Origin: Escherichia coli
Lineage (GTDB): Bacteria > Pseudomonadota > Gammaproteobacteria > Enterobacterales > Enterobacteriaceae
Strand: one strand, 5' to 3'
Assembly (NCBI RefSeq): GCF_024223415.1
Contig: NZ_CP100501.1
Length of the DNA: 64,000 nucleotides
Positions 234 to 8,435 of the stretch are shown here, piece by piece (positions within the stretch are counted from its first letter, which is position 1; every line of letters begins with the position of its first letter). The position numbers were made by a program, and so were the translations under genes. Below the pieces are notes generated by a model. It saw only the letters and a list, made by a program, of their open reading frames with translations. It was not told where the DNA came from and made no database searches.

Positions 234-287
234 TGAACAACCACACCGCCCCGCCGGAGACGGGGCGGCAGCAAGGGAGATACCGTG

Positions 288-722
288 ATGAAAACTGAAC
301 TGACCCTGAATGCCCTGCAGTCCATGAACGCACAGGAATATGAAGATATCCGTGCTGCGGGAAGCGATATGCGCCGTAATCTCACTCACGAGGTGATGCG
401 TGAAGTGGACGCACCGGCTAACTGGATGATGAATGGCGAGTATGGCAGTGAGTTCGGGGGCTTTTTCCCCGTCCAGGTTCGTTTCACGCCAGCCCACGAA
501 CGTTTCCACCTGGCATTATGTTCGCCGGGAGACGTCTCTCAGCTCTGGATGCTGGTTCTGGTGAGTGGTGGTGGACAGCCTTTCGCCGTCGTTCAGGTGC
601 AACATATCTTCACGCCTGTCGCGATCAGTCACACGCTGGCGCTCGCCGCGACACTTGATGCGCAGGGATACAGTGTTAACGACATCATTCATATTTTGAT
701 GGCAGAAGGAGGTCAGGCATGA
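288..722 (+). CDS. psiB: PsiB, plasmid SOS-inhibition protein (RecA inhibitor)
   Basis: About 144 aa starting [25 protein letters not shown], which matches PsiB of F/IncI leading regions from memory; SD AAGGGAGA upstream; 4-bp overlap with the following psiA-like gene. Confidence 0.85.
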
Positions 723-1438
723 GCGCACGTTCACGGGCACTGATCCCCCTCAGCGCAGAACAACAGGCCGCTATGCAGGCTGTGGCTGTCACCGAACAAC
801 GTCGTCGTCAGGGACGCACACTTTCAGCATGGCCTTATGCCACCGCTTTCTTTCGCTGCCTGAATGGCAGTCGCCGGATTTCGCTGACCGATCTCCGCTT
901 TTTTGCCCCTGCGCTGACGAAGGAGGAATTTCATGGCAACCGTCTCCTGTGGCTGGCTGCAGTGGACAAACTGATTGAAAGTTTTGGTGAAGTCTGTGTT
1001 CTTCCCCTGCCATCCGATGCGGGGCATCGTTTGTTCCCGTCCGTTCCTTTTCGTGAAGGTGAGCGGCGTCGTCAGAAAACCACGCTGACAGAGCAGAAAT
1101 ACAGCCGCCAGCGGGAACGTGAGGCAGAACGACGGGAACGGGAATACCAGACATGTTTTGCTCAGGCGCAGATTGACCTTGCGTTTCATACTCCCGCCAC
1201 GGTCGGAAGCTGGTTGTCCCGCTGGTCTGGTGTTGTTGAGGAGCATGATCTGGAAACGATTTTCTGGGGGTGGTGCGGGCGTTTTCCATCACTGTCATCA
1301 TTTGACCGGTTTTTCTGGCAGGAGGAACCACTCTGGCGGTTGATTTTTGAAGCCGGTGAGGCCGGTCGTGGTGCACCGGTACAGGTACGTGCACTTGAGC
1401 AGTGGATGATCCCGAACAAGCTGGAGAACGTAATATGA
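719..1438 (+). CDS. psiA: PsiA, plasmid SOS-inhibition protein A
   Basis: 239 aa, the canonical PsiA length; N-terminus [18 protein letters not shown]; translationally coupled to psiB. Confidence 0.8.
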
Positions 1439-2031: not shown

Positions 2032-2495
2032 ACCAGTGGAGGTATGCTTGAGGAGCAGGGACATGCCGGTCATGATCGTTTCGTTCCAGGGGTGGTCTGG
2101 AGATCATGCGGCGTGTCCTCTGCACTCGCCGGAATAAGGACGTCGCCGCCGGCTCCGCTTTTACCCGGCCATGCGGGGCATGGCCTTGTGGGTTTTCAGC
2201 TCTGTGGCCTCAGCGTCGTGTGCGGGCTGTGCCGTGCCTCCATCGTAGCCGGGCTTCTGCGGGCGGGATGCAAGGTAAGATGAACCGCTGCGGTCACCCG
2301 GTCCCTCCTTCCCGTCTGCCGTGATTTTCCGGTCGTTCACCCGCTCAGATTTCGCGGTCTCACCCTCCAACTCCCGTCAGCCGTGCGCGTCGGGCTGCGG
2401 CTTTCCTTGCGCCCTTGCATCCCTGCAGGCCCGGCAAAGATGGAGGCACGGCACCGCCCGGTGTCGCAGAACATGTGACTATGGAGGATTCGGGA

Positions 2496-2996
2496 ATGTC
2501 TGTTGTTGCACCTGCTGTATACGTTGGAACCTGGCACAAATATAACTGCGGAAGCATCGCCGGCCGCTGGTTTGACCTGACCACGTTTGATGATGAACGC
2601 GATTTTTTCGCCGCCTGCCGTGCCCTTCACCAGGATGAAACCGATCCGGAACTGATGTTTCAGGATTATGAGGGTTTCCCGGGGAATATGGCCTCTGAAT
2701 GTCATATCAACTGGGCCTGGGTTGAAGGCTTCCGCCGGGCACGGGATGAAGGCTGCGAAGAGGCTTATCGTCTCTGGGTGGATGATACCGGTGAGACGGA
2801 TTTTGACAGCTTCCGCGATGCCTGGTGGGGCGAGGCTGACAGTGAGGAGGCTTTTGCGGTTGAGTTCGTCAGTGATACCGGCCTGCTGGCTGACGTGCCG
2901 GAGACGGTGGCGCTCTATTTTGACTATGAGGCGTATGCGCGGGATTTATTCCTGGACTCCTTCACCTTTATTGACGGTCATGTGTTCCGTCGGTGA
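2496..2996 (+). CDS. ardA: ArdA antirestriction protein (DNA mimic, anti type I R-M)
   Basis: 166 aa, MSVVAPAVYVGTWHKYNCGSIAGRWFDLTTFDDERDFFAACRALHQDE; acidic C-terminal half typical of ArdA; preceded by ~460 bp of GC-rich untranslated leader. Confidence 0.9.
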   Translation: MSVVAPAVYVGTWHKYNCGSIAGRWFDLTTFDDERDFFAACRALHQDETDPELMFQDYEGFPGNMASECHINWAWVEGFRRARDEGCEEAYRLWVDDTGETDFDSFRDAWWGEADSEEAFAVEFVSDTGLLADVPETVALYFDYEAYARDLFLDSFTFIDGHVFRR

Positions 2997-3348
2997 TTTA
3001 CTCCCCCGCTCCGGCGGGGGTATGGCCTGCCGGGCCGCCGGAAAACCCTGGCAGGCTTACGCCTGCCTGAAATACAGGAGGGCCGCGCCTGCGGCGCTGC
3101 CCTTCCTGCCCGTCATGGTGTGAGGCATTTTTCTGTTTTGTCGTTTCTGTTGTTCTGATGCCCGGAGGCGGGGACACCCTTCGGCTCCCGGCTGCCTGGC
3201 GGCATCCGGTCGTCGGCCCGACTCCGACAGGCAGCTGCTGGCGCACCCGCCAGTCTCCGCCGAACCCGCTGGCGCGGTTTCGGGCTGCCGCTACGGTCCG
3301 ATGTCTGAAAAACCAGGCCTGCAGCGACCGTTCCGGTCGCGCCGCCCC

Positions 3349-3675
3349 TGTCGCGCCGGAAACGGCGCTCCCTGCACACCTGACGGTGTGTAAGGCCACT
3401 GCGCCTGATGGCGCAGTCAACCCTTCCGCCGCCACCCCTGCGGCCTGTTTCCCGCTGTGGACTTTCCGGGGGCTGAAGCGGCCACAACACGGGGCAGCCG
3501 TCCAGGGGAGAGATGTACCAGCCACAAAACTTTTTGCCGCAGGCGTCAAAAACTTTTGCGTCTGCCCCCGGACAACTGCCCCGTGCCGTGGCAGTCGCTG
3601 CCCCATCGGAAAGGTCCACTGCGGGGAGAAACCCCGAAGAAGTGGACGGCAGAAGGGGCTTTCGCCCCTCCGGGG
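3349..3675 (+). promoter_or_regulatory. Frpo/ssi-like single-strand promoter repeat, copy A
   Basis: About 330 bp GC-rich non-coding segment, near-identical to 6214-6543 (more than 80 bp identical around ccaggggagagatgtaccagccacaaaactttttgccgcaggcgtcaaaaacttttgcgtctgcccccggacaactgccccgtg); ends about 50 bp before the start codon at 3725. Confidence 0.55.
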
Positions 3676-3724
3676 GAGCAACCGGTCGGCCCGGCGACCT
3701 GATTCAGCAGAAGGAGACGTTTTC

Positions 3725-4159
3725 ATGACAGTCAGCAGCACGATTTCCGTTTTTTGCCGAGACGGGGTGTTCCGTACCGTTTACTGCCACCTGCACGGTG
3801 AGCCGACCTGGAACGGTCGCATCCTGCATACCCACTATGCCACCGGTCAGCTGGCCGAAGCCCTGGTTGAACACGGAGATATCCGTTGCCTCGGTCCCCG
3901 TTGCGACAAACCCGCCGGGCATACGCTTCAGAACCCGGTGGACGGTGTGACGGCTTATTACGGACGTGACAGTGGTTTCCGGATGGACAGTGAGGCGCGT
4001 GAGTACCGTTCTTTCAGGGAGGCTATTGCCACTGAAAGCACTGAAGAGGTGCGCTTCCATTATGTGTTCATCGACGGCTACTGGAAGGTGATGTACCGCA
4101 CGCCGGAAGGCTGGAAGATGAAAGCGCTCGCGCTGGCACTGCGTCGCTGTCCGGAATGA
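3725..4159 (+). CDS. hypothetical protein (144 aa), first gene downstream of promoter repeat A
   Basis: ATG at 3725 with GGAGACG SD-like sequence; MTVSSTISVFCRDGVFRTVYCHLHGEPTWNG; no recognised domain. Confidence 0.6.
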   Translation: MTVSSTISVFCRDGVFRTVYCHLHGEPTWNGRILHTHYATGQLAEALVEHGDIRCLGPRCDKPAGHTLQNPVDGVTAYYGRDSGFRMDSEAREYRSFREAIATESTEEVRFHYVFIDGYWKVMYRTPEGWKMKALALALRRCPE

Positions 4160-4250
4160 AAAAAAGCAGGGCGATAAACCCTGCCTCTCTCCGCCGCTGC
4201 TTCCCGGCCAGGAAGAGCGGCAGTCATCAACAACATAAGGAGAAATATTT

Positions 4251-4517
4251 GTGAGACCATCAATTATCTTCGCAACCGCCGAGTATGTAAAGCGTCTGCG
4301 TGAAGAGTGCCTGCGGGAGAATAAACCCCTGCACCGCCATACCCGCTTCAGACGTCAGGAGCTGGCACAGGATGAGATTAACCCGGACGTCCTGGCGATG
4401 AGCGGTCATATCGCCAGACGCTGCAGTGAGCAGAAGCGGGTGCGTATCCCCGCCATGAAAGTCAGCGAATGGGGCCACCTGCTCCGCGCGCTTGAAATTG
4501 AACGGGTCTGTCACTGA
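4251..4517 (+). CDS. hypothetical protein (88 aa, GTG start)
   Basis: AAGGAG SD 8 nt before GTG; lies between the 144-aa gene and rpn. Confidence 0.45.
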   Translation: MRPSIIFATAEYVKRLREECLRENKPLHRHTRFRRQELAQDEINPDVLAMSGHIARRCSEQKRVRIPAMKVSEWGHLLRALEIERVCH

Positions 4518-4581
4518 TTAACCCTTGCCGTCTGCCTGTGCAGGCGGCAGGATACGTTCAGACATCTCACCAGGAGGAACC

Positions 4582-5460
4582 GTGAGTAAGAAGAAAAACA
4601 CCACAACGCCCACGCCGCATGATGCCGCGTTCCGGTCGTTCCTGGCGAATCCCGACGTTGCCAGGGATTTTCTGGAGTTGCATCTTCCTGCGGAGTACCG
4701 GCAGTTGTGCGACCTGTCCACCCTGAAGCTGGAACCCGCCACCTTTGTTGAGCCGGACCTGCATCAGTACGCCAGCGATATCCTCTGGAGTGTGAAAACC
4801 ACCGGGGGTGAAGACGGCTATGTTTATACGCTCATCGAGCACCAGAGCACCGAAAATCTGTACATGCCTTTTCGCATGTTACGTTACAGTGTGGCGGCGA
4901 TGCAGAGACATCTGGAGCAGCACAAAACGTTGCCACTGGTCATTCCGGTGCTGTTCTATCACGGTGAGCGCAGCCCGTACCCGTACAGCATGAACTGGCT
5001 GGACTGTTTTGAGAATCCGGCACTTGCGGCTAAAATATACACAAAGCCGTTTCCGCTGGTTGATATCACTGTCGTTGATGACAATGAAATCATGAACCAT
5101 CGCCGGATGGCCGCACTGACGCTGCTGATGAAGCATATCCGCCATCGTGACATGATGGAGCTGCTGGACAAACTCCCGCAGGTCATGGTGGAAATTTCAG
5201 ACGAGCAGGTGCGTGTTCTGATTCATTACATCGTTAACGCAGGGGACACTGTATCACCGGAATTTATGCGGGCGCTGGCCGAGCGCCTGCCGCAGCATGA
5301 GGATAAACTGATGACAATCGCAGAACGTCTTGAGCAGAAAGGTGCGCTTGAAAAAGCCCTGGCCATTGCGCGTCAGCTTCAGAAAATGGGGATGACACCT
5401 GAGCAGATTAAGCAGGCCACCGGACTTTCCGAAGCTGAACTGAAAAAAGTCATTCACTGA
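4582..5460 (+). CDS. rpn: Rpn family recombination-promoting nuclease (YhgA-like PD-(D/E)XK)
   Basis: AGGAGG SD then GTG; HDAAFRSFLANPDVARDFLELHLPAEYRQLCDLSTLKLE and FYHGERSPYPYS motifs as in E. coli RpnA-E; C-terminal tail MTIAERLEQKG...TGLSEAELKK. Confidence 0.8.
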   Translation: MSKKKNTTTPTPHDAAFRSFLANPDVARDFLELHLPAEYRQLCDLSTLKLEPATFVEPDLHQYASDILWSVKTTGGEDGYVYTLIEHQSTENLYMPFRMLRYSVAAMQRHLEQHKTLPLVIPVLFYHGERSPYPYSMNWLDCFENPALAAKIYTKPFPLVDITVVDDNEIMNHRRMAALTLLMKHIRHRDMMELLDKLPQVMVEISDEQVRVLIHYIVNAGDTVSPEFMRALAERLPQHEDKLMTIAERLEQKGALEKALAIARQLQKMGMTPEQIKQATGLSEAELKKVIH

Positions 5461-5474
5461 TGAGAGCATCACAG

Positions 5475-5498
5475 CCCGGCAAAATGCCGGGCTTTTTG
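5475..5498 (+). terminator. rho-independent terminator-like hairpin after rpn
   Basis: cccggcaaaatgccggg followed by cttttt. Confidence 0.45.
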
Positions 5499-5521
5499 CC
5501 AGCAGGAGCAGAGCAAACAGC

Positions 5522-5728
5522 ATGACGATTGCAGAACGTCTTATACAGAAAGGTTTCGACGAGGGTTTTAAAGAAGGTTTTAAAGAAGGTTTTAAACAAG
5601 GAGCTCTTGAAGTGGCGCGGGAAATAGCCTGCCGGCTTCGGGATATAGGCTGGTCGCCGGAACGGATTCAGGAGGTCACGGGACTTTCCGGTGAAGAACT
5701 GAAAAAGCTGTTTCCTGATGAGCAGTAG
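5522..5728 (+). CDS. stand-alone small protein resembling the Rpn C-terminal domain (RpnS-like), 68 aa
   Basis: MTIAERLIQKG...ALEVAREIACRL...TGLSGEELKK aligns with the last ~49 aa of the upstream Rpn protein; contains three 12-bp tandem repeats encoding EGFK (5561-5596). Confidence 0.55.
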   Translation: MTIAERLIQKGFDEGFKEGFKEGFKQGALEVAREIACRLRDIGWSPERIQEVTGLSGEELKKLFPDEQ

Positions 5729-5758
5729 CCTGGCATTCAGCCAGGCTGTGAATCACGC

Positions 5759-6010
5759 TCACACATCCTCTGCCGTTTCCCCCAGTTCATTTTCCAGTCG
5801 CCTGATGATATCTGCCTTACGCATCCCCTGCATGTGAGGCAGCAGGTCACGGACTGAAAGTGCCTGGGTGGTCCTCCAGACGGTGACGTCCACCTGTTCC
5901 GCATTTTCCCAGGCGTGCCATGTTCTCTGCGTCACGCCAAATTCTCTGGCCGCTTTTTCGCGTGACCAGAGCATGCTTTTTCGCCAGATTCGCAGTTCCC
6001 ATCCGGTCAT
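5759..6010 (-). CDS. small helix-turn-helix DNA-binding protein (83 aa)
   Basis: AREFGVTQRTWHAWE HTH-like motif; divergent from promoter repeat B; palindromic sites in its upstream region. Confidence 0.55.
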   Translation of the reverse strand: MTGWELRIWRKSMLWSREKAAREFGVTQRTWHAWENAEQVDVTVWRTTQALSVRDLLPHMQGMRKADIIRRLENELGETAEDV

Positions 6011-6025
6011 AAAACACCTTTGAAA

Positions 6026-6111
6026 AAGTGAAAAAACTTCACTTTATTTTATCATCACAATTGCCAAATCAGCGCGATAAATAAGTGTAAAAAAGTGAAG
6101 AAATTTCACTT
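6026..6111. promoter_or_regulatory. two palindromic operator-like sites, AAGTGAA-N5-TTCACTT
   Basis: aagtgaaaaaacttcactt at 6026-6044 and aagtgaagaaatttcactt at 6093-6111, in the intergenic region between the HTH gene and promoter repeat B. Confidence 0.4.
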
Positions 6112-6213
6112 TTTTTGGTTGTAAATGTCGTGCGGTTTTCTCTGTTTTCACCTGTGCGGGAGTGGTGTGCCAGTGACCACCACATGCCATTGTTGTGCCG
6201 TCGTTTTTCTTCA

Positions 6214-6543
6214 GTCGCGCCGGATGCGGCGCTCCCTGCACACCTTACGGTGTGTAAGGCCACTGCGCCTGATGGCGCAGCTGCCTCTGCCTGTCTGCCG
6301 CCGCACTGCGGCCTGTTCTCCGCAGACGGACTTTCCGGGGGTACATACACGACCACATCCCGTTTCAGTCGTCCAGGGGAGAGATGTACCAGCCACAAAA
6401 CTTTTTGCCGCAGGCGTCAAAAACTTTTGCGTCTGCCCCCGGACAACTGCCCCGTGACGTGGTGAGCGTCCCCCGTCGGAAAGGTCCACTGCGGGGAAAT
6501 CCCCGAAGACCCGGACGGCAGAAGGAGCTTCGCTCCTCCGGGA
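6214..6543 (+). promoter_or_regulatory. Frpo/ssi-like single-strand promoter repeat, copy B
   Basis: Near-identical to 3349-3675; ends about 45 bp before the start codon at 6587. Confidence 0.55.
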
Positions 6544-6586
6544 AATGACCTGGCTGACCCGGCAGTCGTGACGATGAGGAGACAAT

Positions 6587-7438
6587 GTGATGAATCAGAC
6601 TTTACCCACTGCTGACCTGAATACTGCCGGCACGACAGATGTTATTCCGTCTGTGGCTATCGACCGCATCATCGCGCAGCGTAACGAAGGTATTGCACTG
6701 TTCATGCAGGCGATGGAATGCCTGGCGACAGCGCGCAGGATTCTGCTCGATGCTTCCGGTGACATTTTTCTCTACGGGTTTGAAGACTGCGTGACTGACT
6801 CCGTTCGATGCATGGATAAACCGGAAGAAGCGAAAAGGAATATCACCCGTCTTGCCGACCGGAAAATCTGGGACCGCCTGATGACAGATACGGGCATGTA
6901 CACCTTCATGAGTTCATGCCAGCGTGATGAGTGGAACAGCCAGCTGATGAGCGACACCTGTCCTGAAATCACCCTGGACAATGTACTGGCAACATTCCGC
7001 CATCTTAATGCCAGCAAGATGCAGACATTTGAACAGGGACTGATTGATGTCTACCGGAAATTGTCATGGGATTACAGAACCAATAATCCCTGCCGTCTGG
7101 GCAAGAAAATCATTATTGAAAACCTGCTGTACCGCTGGAGTAACGGGCGTGTGACGCTGGACTGCAGCAGACGGGAGGCACTGGATGACCTGGTACGTCC
7201 GTTTTATCTGCTGGAGGGGCGCAACGTTCCTGACTTCAGGAACAGCATCGGGGCGCAGTATGGTGAATTTCTCAGGAACGGCGACAATGTCGGTAAGTTG
7301 TTAGAAGGGGAATATTTTACGGTGCGTGGCTACCAGAAAGGGACCGTACACATTGTCTTTAAGCGTTCTGACCTTGTTGAAAAACTGAATGATATTATTG
7401 CACGGCATTATCCTGGTGCATTGCCGCCACGAGTCTGA
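6587..7438 (+). CDS. hypothetical protein (283 aa), first gene downstream of promoter repeat B
   Basis: GGAGACA SD-like then ATGATG; no catalytic motif recognised; followed by a hairpin terminator. Confidence 0.6.
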   Translation: MMNQTLPTADLNTAGTTDVIPSVAIDRIIAQRNEGIALFMQAMECLATARRILLDASGDIFLYGFEDCVTDSVRCMDKPEEAKRNITRLADRKIWDRLMTDTGMYTFMSSCQRDEWNSQLMSDTCPEITLDNVLATFRHLNASKMQTFEQGLIDVYRKLSWDYRTNNPCRLGKKIIIENLLYRWSNGRVTLDCSRREALDDLVRPFYLLEGRNVPDFRNSIGAQYGEFLRNGDNVGKLLEGEYFTVRGYQKGTVHIVFKRSDLVEKLNDIIARHYPGALPPRV

Positions 7439-7448
7439 TTAAACAGAA

Positions 7449-7481
7449 AAGCCCTGGTATTTATGCCGGGGCTTTTTTTTC
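7449..7481. terminator. hairpin plus T-run, likely bidirectional terminator
   Basis: aagccc...gggctt stem followed by tttttttt between convergent genes. Confidence 0.5.
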
Positions 7482-7523
7482 TGTAATCATCATAATCTCA
7501 GAACACGATGTGACATTGTCACA

Positions 7524-7865
7524 TCAATTGTTGTTCATATCGATGCCATCTTTCCTGCCTGAATCTGTCTTTTTAGGTGCTGTTTTAGAGGAAGAACGGC
7601 GGGATGTTTTTTTCGATTCTGCTTCCCGAATAATGTCACGAAGTGCCTTCTCTCCTACTTCATACCCTGCATTTTTGAGCGTGTCACGAATATCTGCCAG
7701 TGTATAACCCTTTGTCCTTACCAGGACAATAATGTCATCACGAATGGCATCAAGAAAATCACGCAATGTTTTCCGTTGAGCGGTGAGATCTGGCAATTCC
7801 GATAAAGCAGCTTTTGCCAGCTGGATGTCATCATCTGAGTAAAATTTTTTAGAAGCCATTGGCAC
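7524..7865 (-). CDS. hypothetical oriT-proximal protein (about 111 aa) with basic C-terminus
   Basis: MASKKFYSDDDIQLAKAALSELPDL...; lysine/serine-rich C-terminal tail; transcribed away from oriT. Confidence 0.5.
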   Translation of the reverse strand: MPMASKKFYSDDDIQLAKAALSELPDLTAQRKTLRDFLDAIRDDIIVLVRTKGYTLADIRDTLKNAGYEVGEKALRDIIREAESKKTSRRSSSKTAPKKTDSGRKDGIDMNNN

Positions 7866-7989
7866 TTTCTCTCCGTTTAATCTTGAAGCCTGATTTTATC
7901 ATCAAAAACTGACTCCTGGCAGGGCTGCGCCCTGCCTCTGCCGTCTGCATAAGACTATGATGCACAAAAATAACAGGCTATAATGGCAT

Positions 7990-8090
7990 GAAAAACGGGA
8001 CAGGATGTGTAATCGTATAACCGCGCACGCACGGCTATACGATTACCACCTGGTCAGGGCTTAGCCCCGACACCCCGGTAAGGAGCAGAC
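7990..8090. other. origin of transfer (oriT) region
   Basis: Intergenic region immediately upstream of nikA with 11-bp inverted repeat gtaatcgtata (8009-8019) / tatacgattac (8036-8046); nick position not determinable by eye. Confidence 0.55.
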
Positions 8091-8091
8091 C

Positions 8092-8424
8092 ATGAGTGAG
8101 AAGAAAACCCGAAGTGGCAGTGAGAAACGGCAAAAGAATGTCCTCATTGCTGTTCGTTTTTCACCAGAAGAGGCTGAGATTGTTAAAGAAAAGGCAGAAA
8201 AAAACGGACTGACAGTTTCAACTCTGATAAGAAAAACTGTGCTGGGAAAACAGATAAATGCCCGCATTGATGAAGATTTTTTGAAAGAGCTGATGCGTCT
8301 TGGTCGCCTGCAGAAGCATCTGTTTGTGGAAGGAAAACGCACGGGAGATAAAGAGTATGCAGAGGTTCTCGTTGCTATTACAGAACTTGCTAATACTCTG
8401 CGAAGAGATTTAATGGGACGCTGA
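8092..8424 (+). CDS. nikA: NikA relaxosome accessory protein (ribbon-helix-helix)
   Basis: 110 aa; NGLTVSTLIRKTVLGKQIN...FLKELMRLGRLQKHLFVEGKRTGDKEYAEVLVAITE as in IncI1 NikA. Confidence 0.85.
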   Translation: MSEKKTRSGSEKRQKNVLIAVRFSPEEAEIVKEKAEKNGLTVSTLIRKTVLGKQINARIDEDFLKELMRLGRLQKHLFVEGKRTGDKEYAEVLVAITELANTLRRDLMGR

Positions 8425-8435
8425 GATAATCGCTG

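Follow-up and report, generated by a model that had tools for sequence, protein, structure and literature searches.

RpnP2 nuclease gene followed by a stand-alone RpnS-family tail gene in the leading region of an IncI-type conjugative transfer system of Escherichia coli

All rpn genes of Escherichia coli yield, from an internal start, a small protein, RpnS, that is the antitoxin of the toxic full-length protein, RpnL (Zhong et al. 2023, PNAS 120:e2307382120; PMC10400941), and transcription start sites inside the gene have been reported for all of them (Zhong et al. 2023, PMC10400941). Separate downstream genes for RpnS-like proteins (RpnSs) have also been published for chromosomes and plasmids, such as ypaA (RpnESs) after rpnE, and rpnCSs (PMC10400941). 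Four-amino-acid (4-aa) repeats in the first helix vary among all RpnS proteins, RpnSs included, and these hypervariable repeats set RpnS/RpnL specificity: RpnS blocks its RpnL only at equal repeat number, and a one-repeat difference abolishes inhibition (PMC10400941). Here, we report on a 64,000-nt stretch of E. coli DNA (NCBI RefSeq assembly GCF_024223415.1, contig NZ_CP100501.1; "the window" means this whole stretch) in which an rpn gene is followed by a separate gene for a 68-aa protein. The best explanation, to which we give somewhat better than an even chance, is an RpnP2 toxin-antitoxin and anti-phage module of IncI-type plasmids with a duplicated, stand-alone tail gene that most likely serves as an accessory RpnS-type component. 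An earlier reading made from the sequence only (the sequence-only reading) had correctly named the internal-start RpnS as the antitoxin of full-length Rpn (PMC10400941); it had also held the arrangement to be undescribed, which is wrong, separate downstream rpnSs genes and variable 4-aa repeats being already in Zhong et al. 2023 and the rpn gene being their RpnP2. The arrangement, the repeats, and the neighboring gene are thus all published, and the finding as first stated adds little to that paper. New here are the unmatched repeat numbers, the tail cassette types that meet at a conserved 5' box, an F-type tail that was never found fused to a nuclease, its ratio of nonsynonymous to synonymous substitution (dN/dS), a possible translational coupling, and the position of the operon behind a hairpin that resembles single-stranded DNA (ssDNA) promoters.

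Coordinates of all features are collected in Table 1. The 292-aa Rpn gene, the hairpin with its T-run, and the 68-aa open reading frame (ORF) were all found where the sequence-only reading had put them. From sequence comparison, the rpn gene is securely identified as the rpnP2 of Zhong et al. 2023, because the cloning sequences of those authors match it. Over the 395 nt compared, gBlock AO591 "RpnP2" (preprint Dataset S2) was 98.5% identical to window positions 4282 to 4676, and the 3' part of reverse primer AO619 is identical to positions 5540 to 5561, ending 101 nt past the rpn stop, in agreement with the published description. Residues D14, D66, E86, and Q88 are intact in the window protein and are its sole differences from the published active-site mutant gBlock. 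The gene is thus the same as that of RpnP2LS on the ECOR13 plasmid, with the same catalytic residues, internal start, and 61-nt spacer (Zhong et al. 2023, PNAS 120:e2307382120). Profile searches gave a match to Pfam Transposase_31 (PF04754; E = 1.9e-78, residues 11 to 207), a score above the NCBIfam TIGR01784 cutoff (168.7 versus 52.1 bits), and 331 bits for the NCBIfam RpnA model; PADLOC-DB 2.0.0 held no model matching Rpn and gave marginal matches only for the small protein. The cognate antitoxin, RpnP2S, starts at an internal ATG preceded at 7 nt by GAGGA, and both are kept in all aligned loci; on the window plasmid it has zero 4-aa repeats. A site resembling a sigma-70 promoter lies inside rpn, about 275 nt upstream of that start, a position that would fit the internal promoters described for rpn genes in E. 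coli.

The ORF of 68 aa encodes a paralogue of the tail at the Rpn C-terminus and would be called "RpnSs" in the naming scheme of Zhong et al. It starts 61 nt after the rpn stop, and BLASTP aligned its product with the 49 C-terminal residues of Rpn (46% identity; E = 2e-12), with a single gap of 16 residues that is exactly FDEGFKEGFKEGFKQG; these two tail copies were the only ones found by tblastn in the 64-kb window. The profile search that the sequence-only reading had named as the check on this homology found matches to the C-termini of two Rpn models, namely NF007418 (positions 244 to 303; E = 1.9e-6) and TIGR01784 (positions 223 to 273; E = 9.4e-6), so the relationship it had proposed holds in pairwise comparison, in profiles, and in the predicted fold. 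An exhaustive HMMER search returned 404 relatives at E ≤ 0.001; the 150 listed were mostly small free-standing proteins, a few being C-termini of full-length Rpn, and the closest full-length tails among the matches listed were 37 to 44% identical. A profile of 51 relatives matched RpnA-S (PDB 7TH0) at E = 4.9e-9; a PDB search with the single sequence returned mainly repeat proteins (IcmE/DotG, designed CAP repeats), and RpnA-S was reached by the family profile only. The AlphaFold2 (AF2) model has helices at residues 3 to 41, 46 to 53, and 57 to 63 (mean predicted local distance difference test score [pLDDT] 76, about 60 over the repeats), which predicts a three-helix fold whose long first helix holds the repeat array. 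Its top Foldseek match was again 7TH0 (probability 0.89, 35% identity), at an E value of 1 because the protein is so small. The solved RpnA-S has three helices, the first of them long, as is predicted for the 68-aa protein; the K-12 protein is without inserted repeats, and helix 1 of the 68-aa protein is predicted to be about 16 residues longer.

Annotation of the small gene varies. DUF4351 (PF14261) matched neither the 68-aa protein nor any of the 51 family members, and that annotation, given to some separate RpnS genes, is not strictly defining for them. PF27070 is a precomputed Pfam match on many homologues and was not reported by the Pfam-A search made here, and newer RefSeq annotation calls the product an "RpnC/YadD family protein." A Yae1_N match to the 68-aa protein was set aside as an uninformative low-complexity hit (GxxxG-like repeats), as were marginal, uninformative helix-turn-helix (HTH) matches from Pfam to the protein and its family. 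Whether the protein might instead bind DNA and regulate the operon or other leading-region genes, and not Rpn, was considered: family members match HTH_23, HTH_7, HTH_28, and Sigma70_r4 weakly, Foldseek neighbors include the DNA-binding domains of Hin and resolvase, and relatedness to HTH motifs in HHpred was noted by Zhong et al. (PMC10400941). We regard such a regulator as very improbable; none of these matches is better than marginal (Foldseek E ≥ 1), the final helix spans only some 7 residues, operator-like repeats were not noticed adjoining rpnSs, and the solved RpnA-S is a dimerization module that binds RpnL (PMC10400941).

The locus is widespread. The 1.5-kb region occurs in 2,035 PLSDB plasmids, most of them conjugative ones from Escherichia and Salmonella. 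Among 5,426 complete E. coli genomes, the small gene was present in 1,340, with 1,538 of its 1,553 places on plasmids and 15 chromosomal, and the nuclease domain was present in 1,378, so that rpn and rpnSs co-occur at about 1:1. Recurrence in about 2,000 PLSDB plasmids and in 1,340 of these genomes shows that the arrangement is not a chance feature. For comparison of loci, metagenome contigs were scanned for an exact 26-nt stretch of the 5' end of the small gene, which gave 87 loci, analyzed together with five plasmid loci and the window; rpn stood upstream of rpnSs in every locus with enough sequence for the check. The small ORF was intact in 84 of the 91 evaluable copies (several of the defective ones came from very low-coverage contigs), in 50 distinct protein alleles, and its start and C-terminal motif were conserved. 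By pooled Nei-Gojobori estimates, dN/dS of the small gene outside the repeats was 0.37, versus 0.12 to 0.14 for neighboring genes; the values for the nuclease N-domain and the nuclease tail were 0.05 and 0.31, respectively. By these measures, the 68-aa ORF codes for a protein, evolves fast, and is maintained by purifying selection.

Between the two genes, a 71-nt stretch with the hairpin folds at −26.5 kcal/mol (z = −3.4), and the hairpin is kept across loci, with a T5/T6 length polymorphism in the T-run. A consensus terminator scan missed it, probably because an extension of the stem uses up the first T, and folding revealed it. The sequence-only reading was right that a terminator-like hairpin precedes the small ORF but not that it does so by 20 bp, the distance being 24 to 28 nt after the hairpin and T-run. 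Through this spacer runs a 21-codon ORF whose ATG overlaps the rpn stop and whose TGA overlaps the rpnSs start. This relay state, with five T's as in the window, was found in 35 loci; in 49 others, six T's put the ATG in frame with rpnSs, which gives the annotated 85- and 89-aa versions. The third frame relative to rpnSs was never seen among the surveyed loci. The two-state stop/start relay thus holds in 84 of 92 loci, the other 8 being without an exact TGATGA, some of them still with an ATG overlapping the stop. This pattern, in loci related by descent, suggests that translation of rpnSs may be coupled to that of rpn through the hairpin. The 85- and 89-aa versions were rejected as the conserved product, the 21-aa N-terminal extension hanging on the T5/T6 polymorphism.

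These data bear on whether the small gene might be an untranslated, nonfunctional pseudogene left by the tail duplication. Such a remnant would fit with the terminator-like hairpin before the ORF, with the annotation of ypaA as a pseudogene in K-12, and with the dispensability of the gene in a published construct (below). The dN/dS of 0.37, the 50 distinct intact alleles, and the conservation of start, relay, and C-terminal motif argue otherwise, as does the detection of YpaA protein by tagging (Zhong et al. 2023, PMC10400941); of the explanations considered here, we hold this one to be the least probable.

Recombination among three or four types of tail cassette takes place at the conserved 33-nt 5' box, which is present at the start of both tail copies in the window; breakpoints of tail swaps and cassette insertions fall at about 5336 to 5343, within the box, and duplication of the cassette includes the hairpin spacer. 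The commonest organization is a nuclease with an R-type tail followed by a free F-type gene (64 complete and 5 partial loci). A nuclease with an I-type tail is followed by a free F-type gene in 7 loci (plus 1 partial) and by free R-type and free F-type genes in 4 (plus 1 partial), and a chimeric I' tail was seen in three loci. The three-cassette loci (L020, L043, L065, L075, and L089) carry rpn with an IQQG-type tail, then a free R-type RpnS gene, then the free F-type gene; the R type, free in these loci, is the tail type fused to the nuclease in the window. An F-type tail fused to a nuclease domain was never found, the best 120 matches in a protein search of 5.8 billion clusters all being ≤111 aa. 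In a further group of loci (L005, L012, L017 to L019, L029, L045, and L059), rpn carries a divergent allele over its 3' third (from about residue 195), and identity to the window stays at about 95% in the spacer and rpnSs, which makes a sharp mosaic boundary near the rpn stop. Occasional variants produced by read-through or frameshift (proteins P0069 [106 aa] and P0031/P0096) either join the Rpn-tail end to the spacer and the F-type tail or run on beyond the F-type stop codon; assembly errors or rare natural fusions may account for them.

Such mosaicism could mean that the free gene is a reservoir or by-product of recombination, raw material for or a relic of tail swaps, with little protein function of its own. 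Because the internal start travels with the cassette, a swap would then alter the specificity of RpnL and RpnS at once. This would fit an R-type tail that forms the nuclease C-terminus in most plasmids and is free downstream of I-type rpn in others, the breakpoints at the 5' box and the spacer duplicated with the cassette, the divergent rpn 3' end beside a conserved spacer and rpnSs in L005, and the loss by deletion, or by N-domain fusion to rpnSs, mentioned by Zhong et al. (PMC10400941). Set against it are the F-type tail, never seen on a nuclease, the dN/dS and the 84 of 91 intact ORFs, which point to selection on the free protein, and a conserved translational relay that would be superfluous for a silent cassette. 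We consider the reservoir unlikely, while ranking it as the strongest of the alternatives.

The repeat arrays of the two genes differ. In RpnS-type proteins, 4-aa units (one hydrophobic residue with charged residues or Gly) begin 8 to 20 residues after the Met. In the small protein, four 4-aa units begin at residue 12, and Tandem Repeats Finder reported positions 5564 to 5601 (period 12, 3.2 copies, 96% matches). The sequence-only reading had described three perfect 12-bp repeats: EGFK does occur perfectly three times in the protein, but the DNA is perfectly periodic over 33 nt only (2.75 units). The copy-number survey of related plasmids that it had proposed gave 1 to 6 units of F[DK][EQ]G in the small gene over 82 intact loci, the protein ranging from 56 to 76 aa in steps of 4 aa (12 bp), and 0 to 7 units of R[QM]EG or IQQG, different from those of the small gene, in the nuclease tail. 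The 12-bp array is probably prone to slippage. In the window, the nuclease tail has 0 repeats and the small gene has 4. Across 58 distinct protein pairs, always scored with the nuclease's own tail and not the nearest upstream free cassette, the numbers were equal in 5 (permutation mean, 8.75; P = 0.10); because of this P value, we speak of no matching rather than of avoidance. The Spearman correlation between the two numbers was −0.39, uncorrected for shared ancestry.

In the accessory-component explanation, the free-standing gene arose as a cassette (conserved 5' box, hairpin spacer, and tail); related plasmids hold one or two free cassettes and swap the tail fused to the nuclease domain, the F type staying always free. 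A relay from the rpn stop (TGATG, the short ORF through the hairpin, then ATGA) would translate rpnSs and so tie its synthesis to that of rpn, and a burst from an ssDNA promoter would express the operon on arrival in a new cell. RpnSs would then act as an accessory RpnS-type dimerization or antitoxin component that buffers or tunes RpnP2L/RpnP2S and is not the primary antitoxin. This role is judged likeliest because of strict co-occurrence, adjacency, the coupling signals, and purifying selection. The rpnE-ypaA pair provides a precedent: the K-12 rpnE tail and YpaA both start with MTIAERL and differ by one 4-aa unit, KLEG. The alternatives are less likely than an accessory component, and among them a DNA-binding regulator and a dead remnant rank below a reservoir or a decoy.

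Several points weigh against this explanation. RpnP2L is toxic without RpnP2S, whose antitoxin role, internal translation included, has been shown experimentally, and RpnP2LS lowers plaquing of T2, T4, and BASEL T-even phages, with less phage protection on rpnP2 deletion in ECOR13 (PMC10400941). The published RpnP2LS construct, which begins with the "native rpnP2 promoter" fragment at 4282, within the 88-aa gene, stops 40 nt into the 68-aa ORF and includes only its first 13 codons, so the 68-aa gene lay outside the toxicity and phage assays. RpnP2 is thus nontoxic and protective against T-even phages without the 68-aa gene, which is dispensable for neutralizing RpnP2L and for defense in the published setting. 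If the published rule applies, the small protein and the neighboring nuclease tail would in most cases not be cognate, and pairing with that tail is doubtful because both repeat numbers and repeat units differ. The hairpin and T-run may end most transcripts before rpnSs, the Shine-Dalgarno sequence (AGGAG) lies 13 nt from the rpnSs ATG, a long spacing, and translation of the 68-aa ORF is a prediction. The "extra antitoxin" of the sequence-only reading is accordingly possible but weakened, by the nontoxicity of RpnP2LS without the 68-aa gene and by the mismatched repeat numbers.

The window carries a conjugative leading region, as the sequence-only reading had supposed; it belongs to a transfer system of the IncI type, with psiB, psiA, ardA, nikA, and nikB around the locus. 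Gene order is psiB-psiA-ardA-...-rpn-rpnSs-DUF4942-(oriT)-nikA-nikB, and the leading-region genes named here are directed towards oriT; the minus strand is the transferred strand, because it is the template for these genes. Upstream of the operon, the minus strand of 3340 to 3680 folds as one long hairpin (−121 kcal/mol; z = −13.9). The element there and its second copy, ahead of the DUF4942 gene, each lie just upstream of a plus-strand operon directed at oriT, and by analogy both are probably class-1 single-strand promoters of the ssi/Frpo type. An Rfam search found no family within 2500 to 8500. On the IncI1 plasmid pESBL, the leading-region operons with the strongest induction during the first 15 min after transfer are driven by ssi1 to ssi3 (ssi/Frpo type) (PMC12672017). 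By the same analogy, plasmid entry into a new cell would probably set off a burst of transcription of the whole operon from an ssDNA promoter. Literature searches combining Rpn with leading region or IncI1 found nothing relevant, and neither conjugation nor the leading region comes up in the main text of the Rpn paper.

Leading regions are enriched in orphan antitoxins, which have been proposed to counter host toxin-antitoxin (TA)-type defenses (PMC11541004). Like these (Samuel et al. 2024, Nature 635:186), rpnSs is an antitoxin-family gene in a leading region, by ardA, psiB, and psiA, and is oriented for transcription from the transferred strand; unlike them, it has the toxin-family gene rpn directly upstream. 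The sequence-only reading had raised a decoy against recipient Rpn, in which RpnSs, made early in the recipient, would heterodimerize with Rpn tails of the recipient or of rival plasmids and inhibit the nucleases. Position in the leading region, reading from the transferred strand, and the ssi-like element upstream would suit such an anti-defense or competition factor, as would the enrichment of orphan antitoxins (PMC11541004), and hypervariable repeats are compatible with an arms race. The proposal gains no support from the searches: no host target was found for rpnSs, the protein searches yielding no full-length Rpn with a matching F-type tail; the closest tails were the 37 to 44% identical ones among the matches listed, and K-12 YpaA is 38% identical. 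Besides, the E. coli DNA-level matches are nearly all on plasmids (1,538 of 1,553 in the 5,426 genomes, only 15 being chromosomal), RpnS inhibits with high specificity for its cognate tail and repeat number, and rpnSs always accompanies its own rpn wherever the contig permits the check. We regard it as improbable.

A related view, likewise quite unlikely, is that F-type RpnSs is not the neighbor's antitoxin but a free factor acting in trans, made within minutes of entry and coupled to rpn translation. It might either heterodimerize, as an anti-defense or competition factor, with RpnS/RpnL tails of the recipient or of rival IncI plasmids, or titrate RpnP2S and so time the activation of the plasmid's own nuclease; its repeat number would evolve apart from that of the nuclease tail, tracking a different partner.

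Among described systems, the chromosomal pairs rpnE-ypaA (RpnESs) and rpnC-rpnCSs of E. coli are among those closest to this locus, each having a small tail-paralogue gene with 4-aa repeats directly downstream. Compared with rpnE-ypaA, the window tails are more diverged (46% identity), have other repeat units, and lie in a plasmid leading region; the genes are parted by a hairpin and an overlapping-codon relay, not a 12-nt gap, and some relatives hold two free cassettes. The TAEL repeats in HsdS of EcoR124I/EcoR124II (cited by Zhong et al.) are likewise a 12-bp, 4-aa repeat in a helical spacer whose copy number alters specificity, but they set the spacing of DNA recognition, whereas Rpn repeats set protein-protein pairing. 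About one-quarter of complete E. coli genomes carry the module on IncI-type plasmids, which puts a toxic defense nuclease in an apparently burst-expressed leading-region operon, a context that the Rpn literature consulted here has not addressed. With an F-type tail that is always free, that was left out of the only experiments on rpnP2, and whose repeat number does not track the nuclease tail, the role of the small gene is a modest but cheaply testable question. The two- and three-cassette arrays show concretely how Rpn tails diversify by recombination at the 5' box.

Table 1. Features of the rpnP2-rpnSs locus and its surroundings (window positions)
Feature	Position	Strand	Basis or remarks
psiB	285-722		
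psiA	719-1438		
ardA	about 2494-2996		
ssi/Frpo-like element, ~312 nt, upstream of operon	3350-3661	-	Direct repeat with second copy at 6214-6530, 85% identity
First operon gene, 144-aa hypothetical protein	3725-4159	+	ORF; hypothetical in related plasmids; dN/dS 0.12
Second operon gene, 88-aa hypothetical protein	4251-4517	+	ORF; hypothetical in related plasmids; dN/dS 0.12
rpn = rpnP2 (RpnP2L), PD-(D/E)XK nuclease toxin/defense protein, 292 aa	4582-5460	+	GTG start at 4582, TGA end at 5460
Candidate internal sigma-70 promoter for RpnS transcript	5009-5036	+	TTGAGA-16-TAAAAT, 10/12 consensus matches; consensus match only
RpnP2S, cognate antitoxin, internal-start ORF, 49 aa, MTIAERLEQKG...	5311-5460	+	Matches C-termini of Rpn models
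Conserved 33-nt 5' box of tail cassette, copies 1 and 2	5311-5343 and 5522-5554	+	Direct repeat, 85% identity
Relay ORF, 21 codons	5460-5525	+	ATG overlaps rpn stop (TGATG); TGA overlaps rpnSs start (ATGA)
Hairpin (9-bp stem, 3-nt loop) and T-run between rpn and rpnSs	5473-5497	+	Folding; stem-loop at 5473-5493
rpnSs, free-standing RpnS-family protein, "F-type" tail, 68 aa	5522-5728	+	Tail homology, profiles, predicted fold
Four 4-aa units (FDEG FKEG FKEG FKQG), 12-bp repeats, inside helix 1	5555-5602	+	Tandem Repeats Finder
XRE/HTH gene, 83 aa, convergent with rpnSs	5759-6010	-	
DUF4942 gene	6587-7438		
mobC-like gene	7524-7865	-	
nikA	8092-8424		
nikB	8436-11138		

Four neighboring genes had no match in NCBIfam. 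The XRE/HTH gene is oriented such that the transferred strand could not serve as its template. Between it and the convergent rpnSs lies a hairpin (5728 to 5746), and the region upstream of it (6012 to 6116) holds 26-nt inverted and 38-nt direct repeats rich in AAAGTGAA, with an operator-like look. In three loci (L011, 171 to 635; L062, 6152 to 6616; and L093), an insertion corresponding to window positions 4573 to 4608 places an extra ORF of 154 aa between the 88-aa gene and rpn; its product has a cysteine-rich, acidic C-terminus (CCHGFERNCCPLGCGDLGDDCC). The plasmids closest to the window region (99.5 to 98.9% identity) are 78 to 83 kb long, most of them from human stool. The best match (L001; NZ_CP025914.1) comes from an E. 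coli isolate from Mali; it has IncFIA/IncFIC typing, a MOBP relaxase, and sta2, a gene for heat-stable enterotoxin. The IncI-type leading region and oriT segment thus also occur in an IncF-typed plasmid with an enterotoxin gene.

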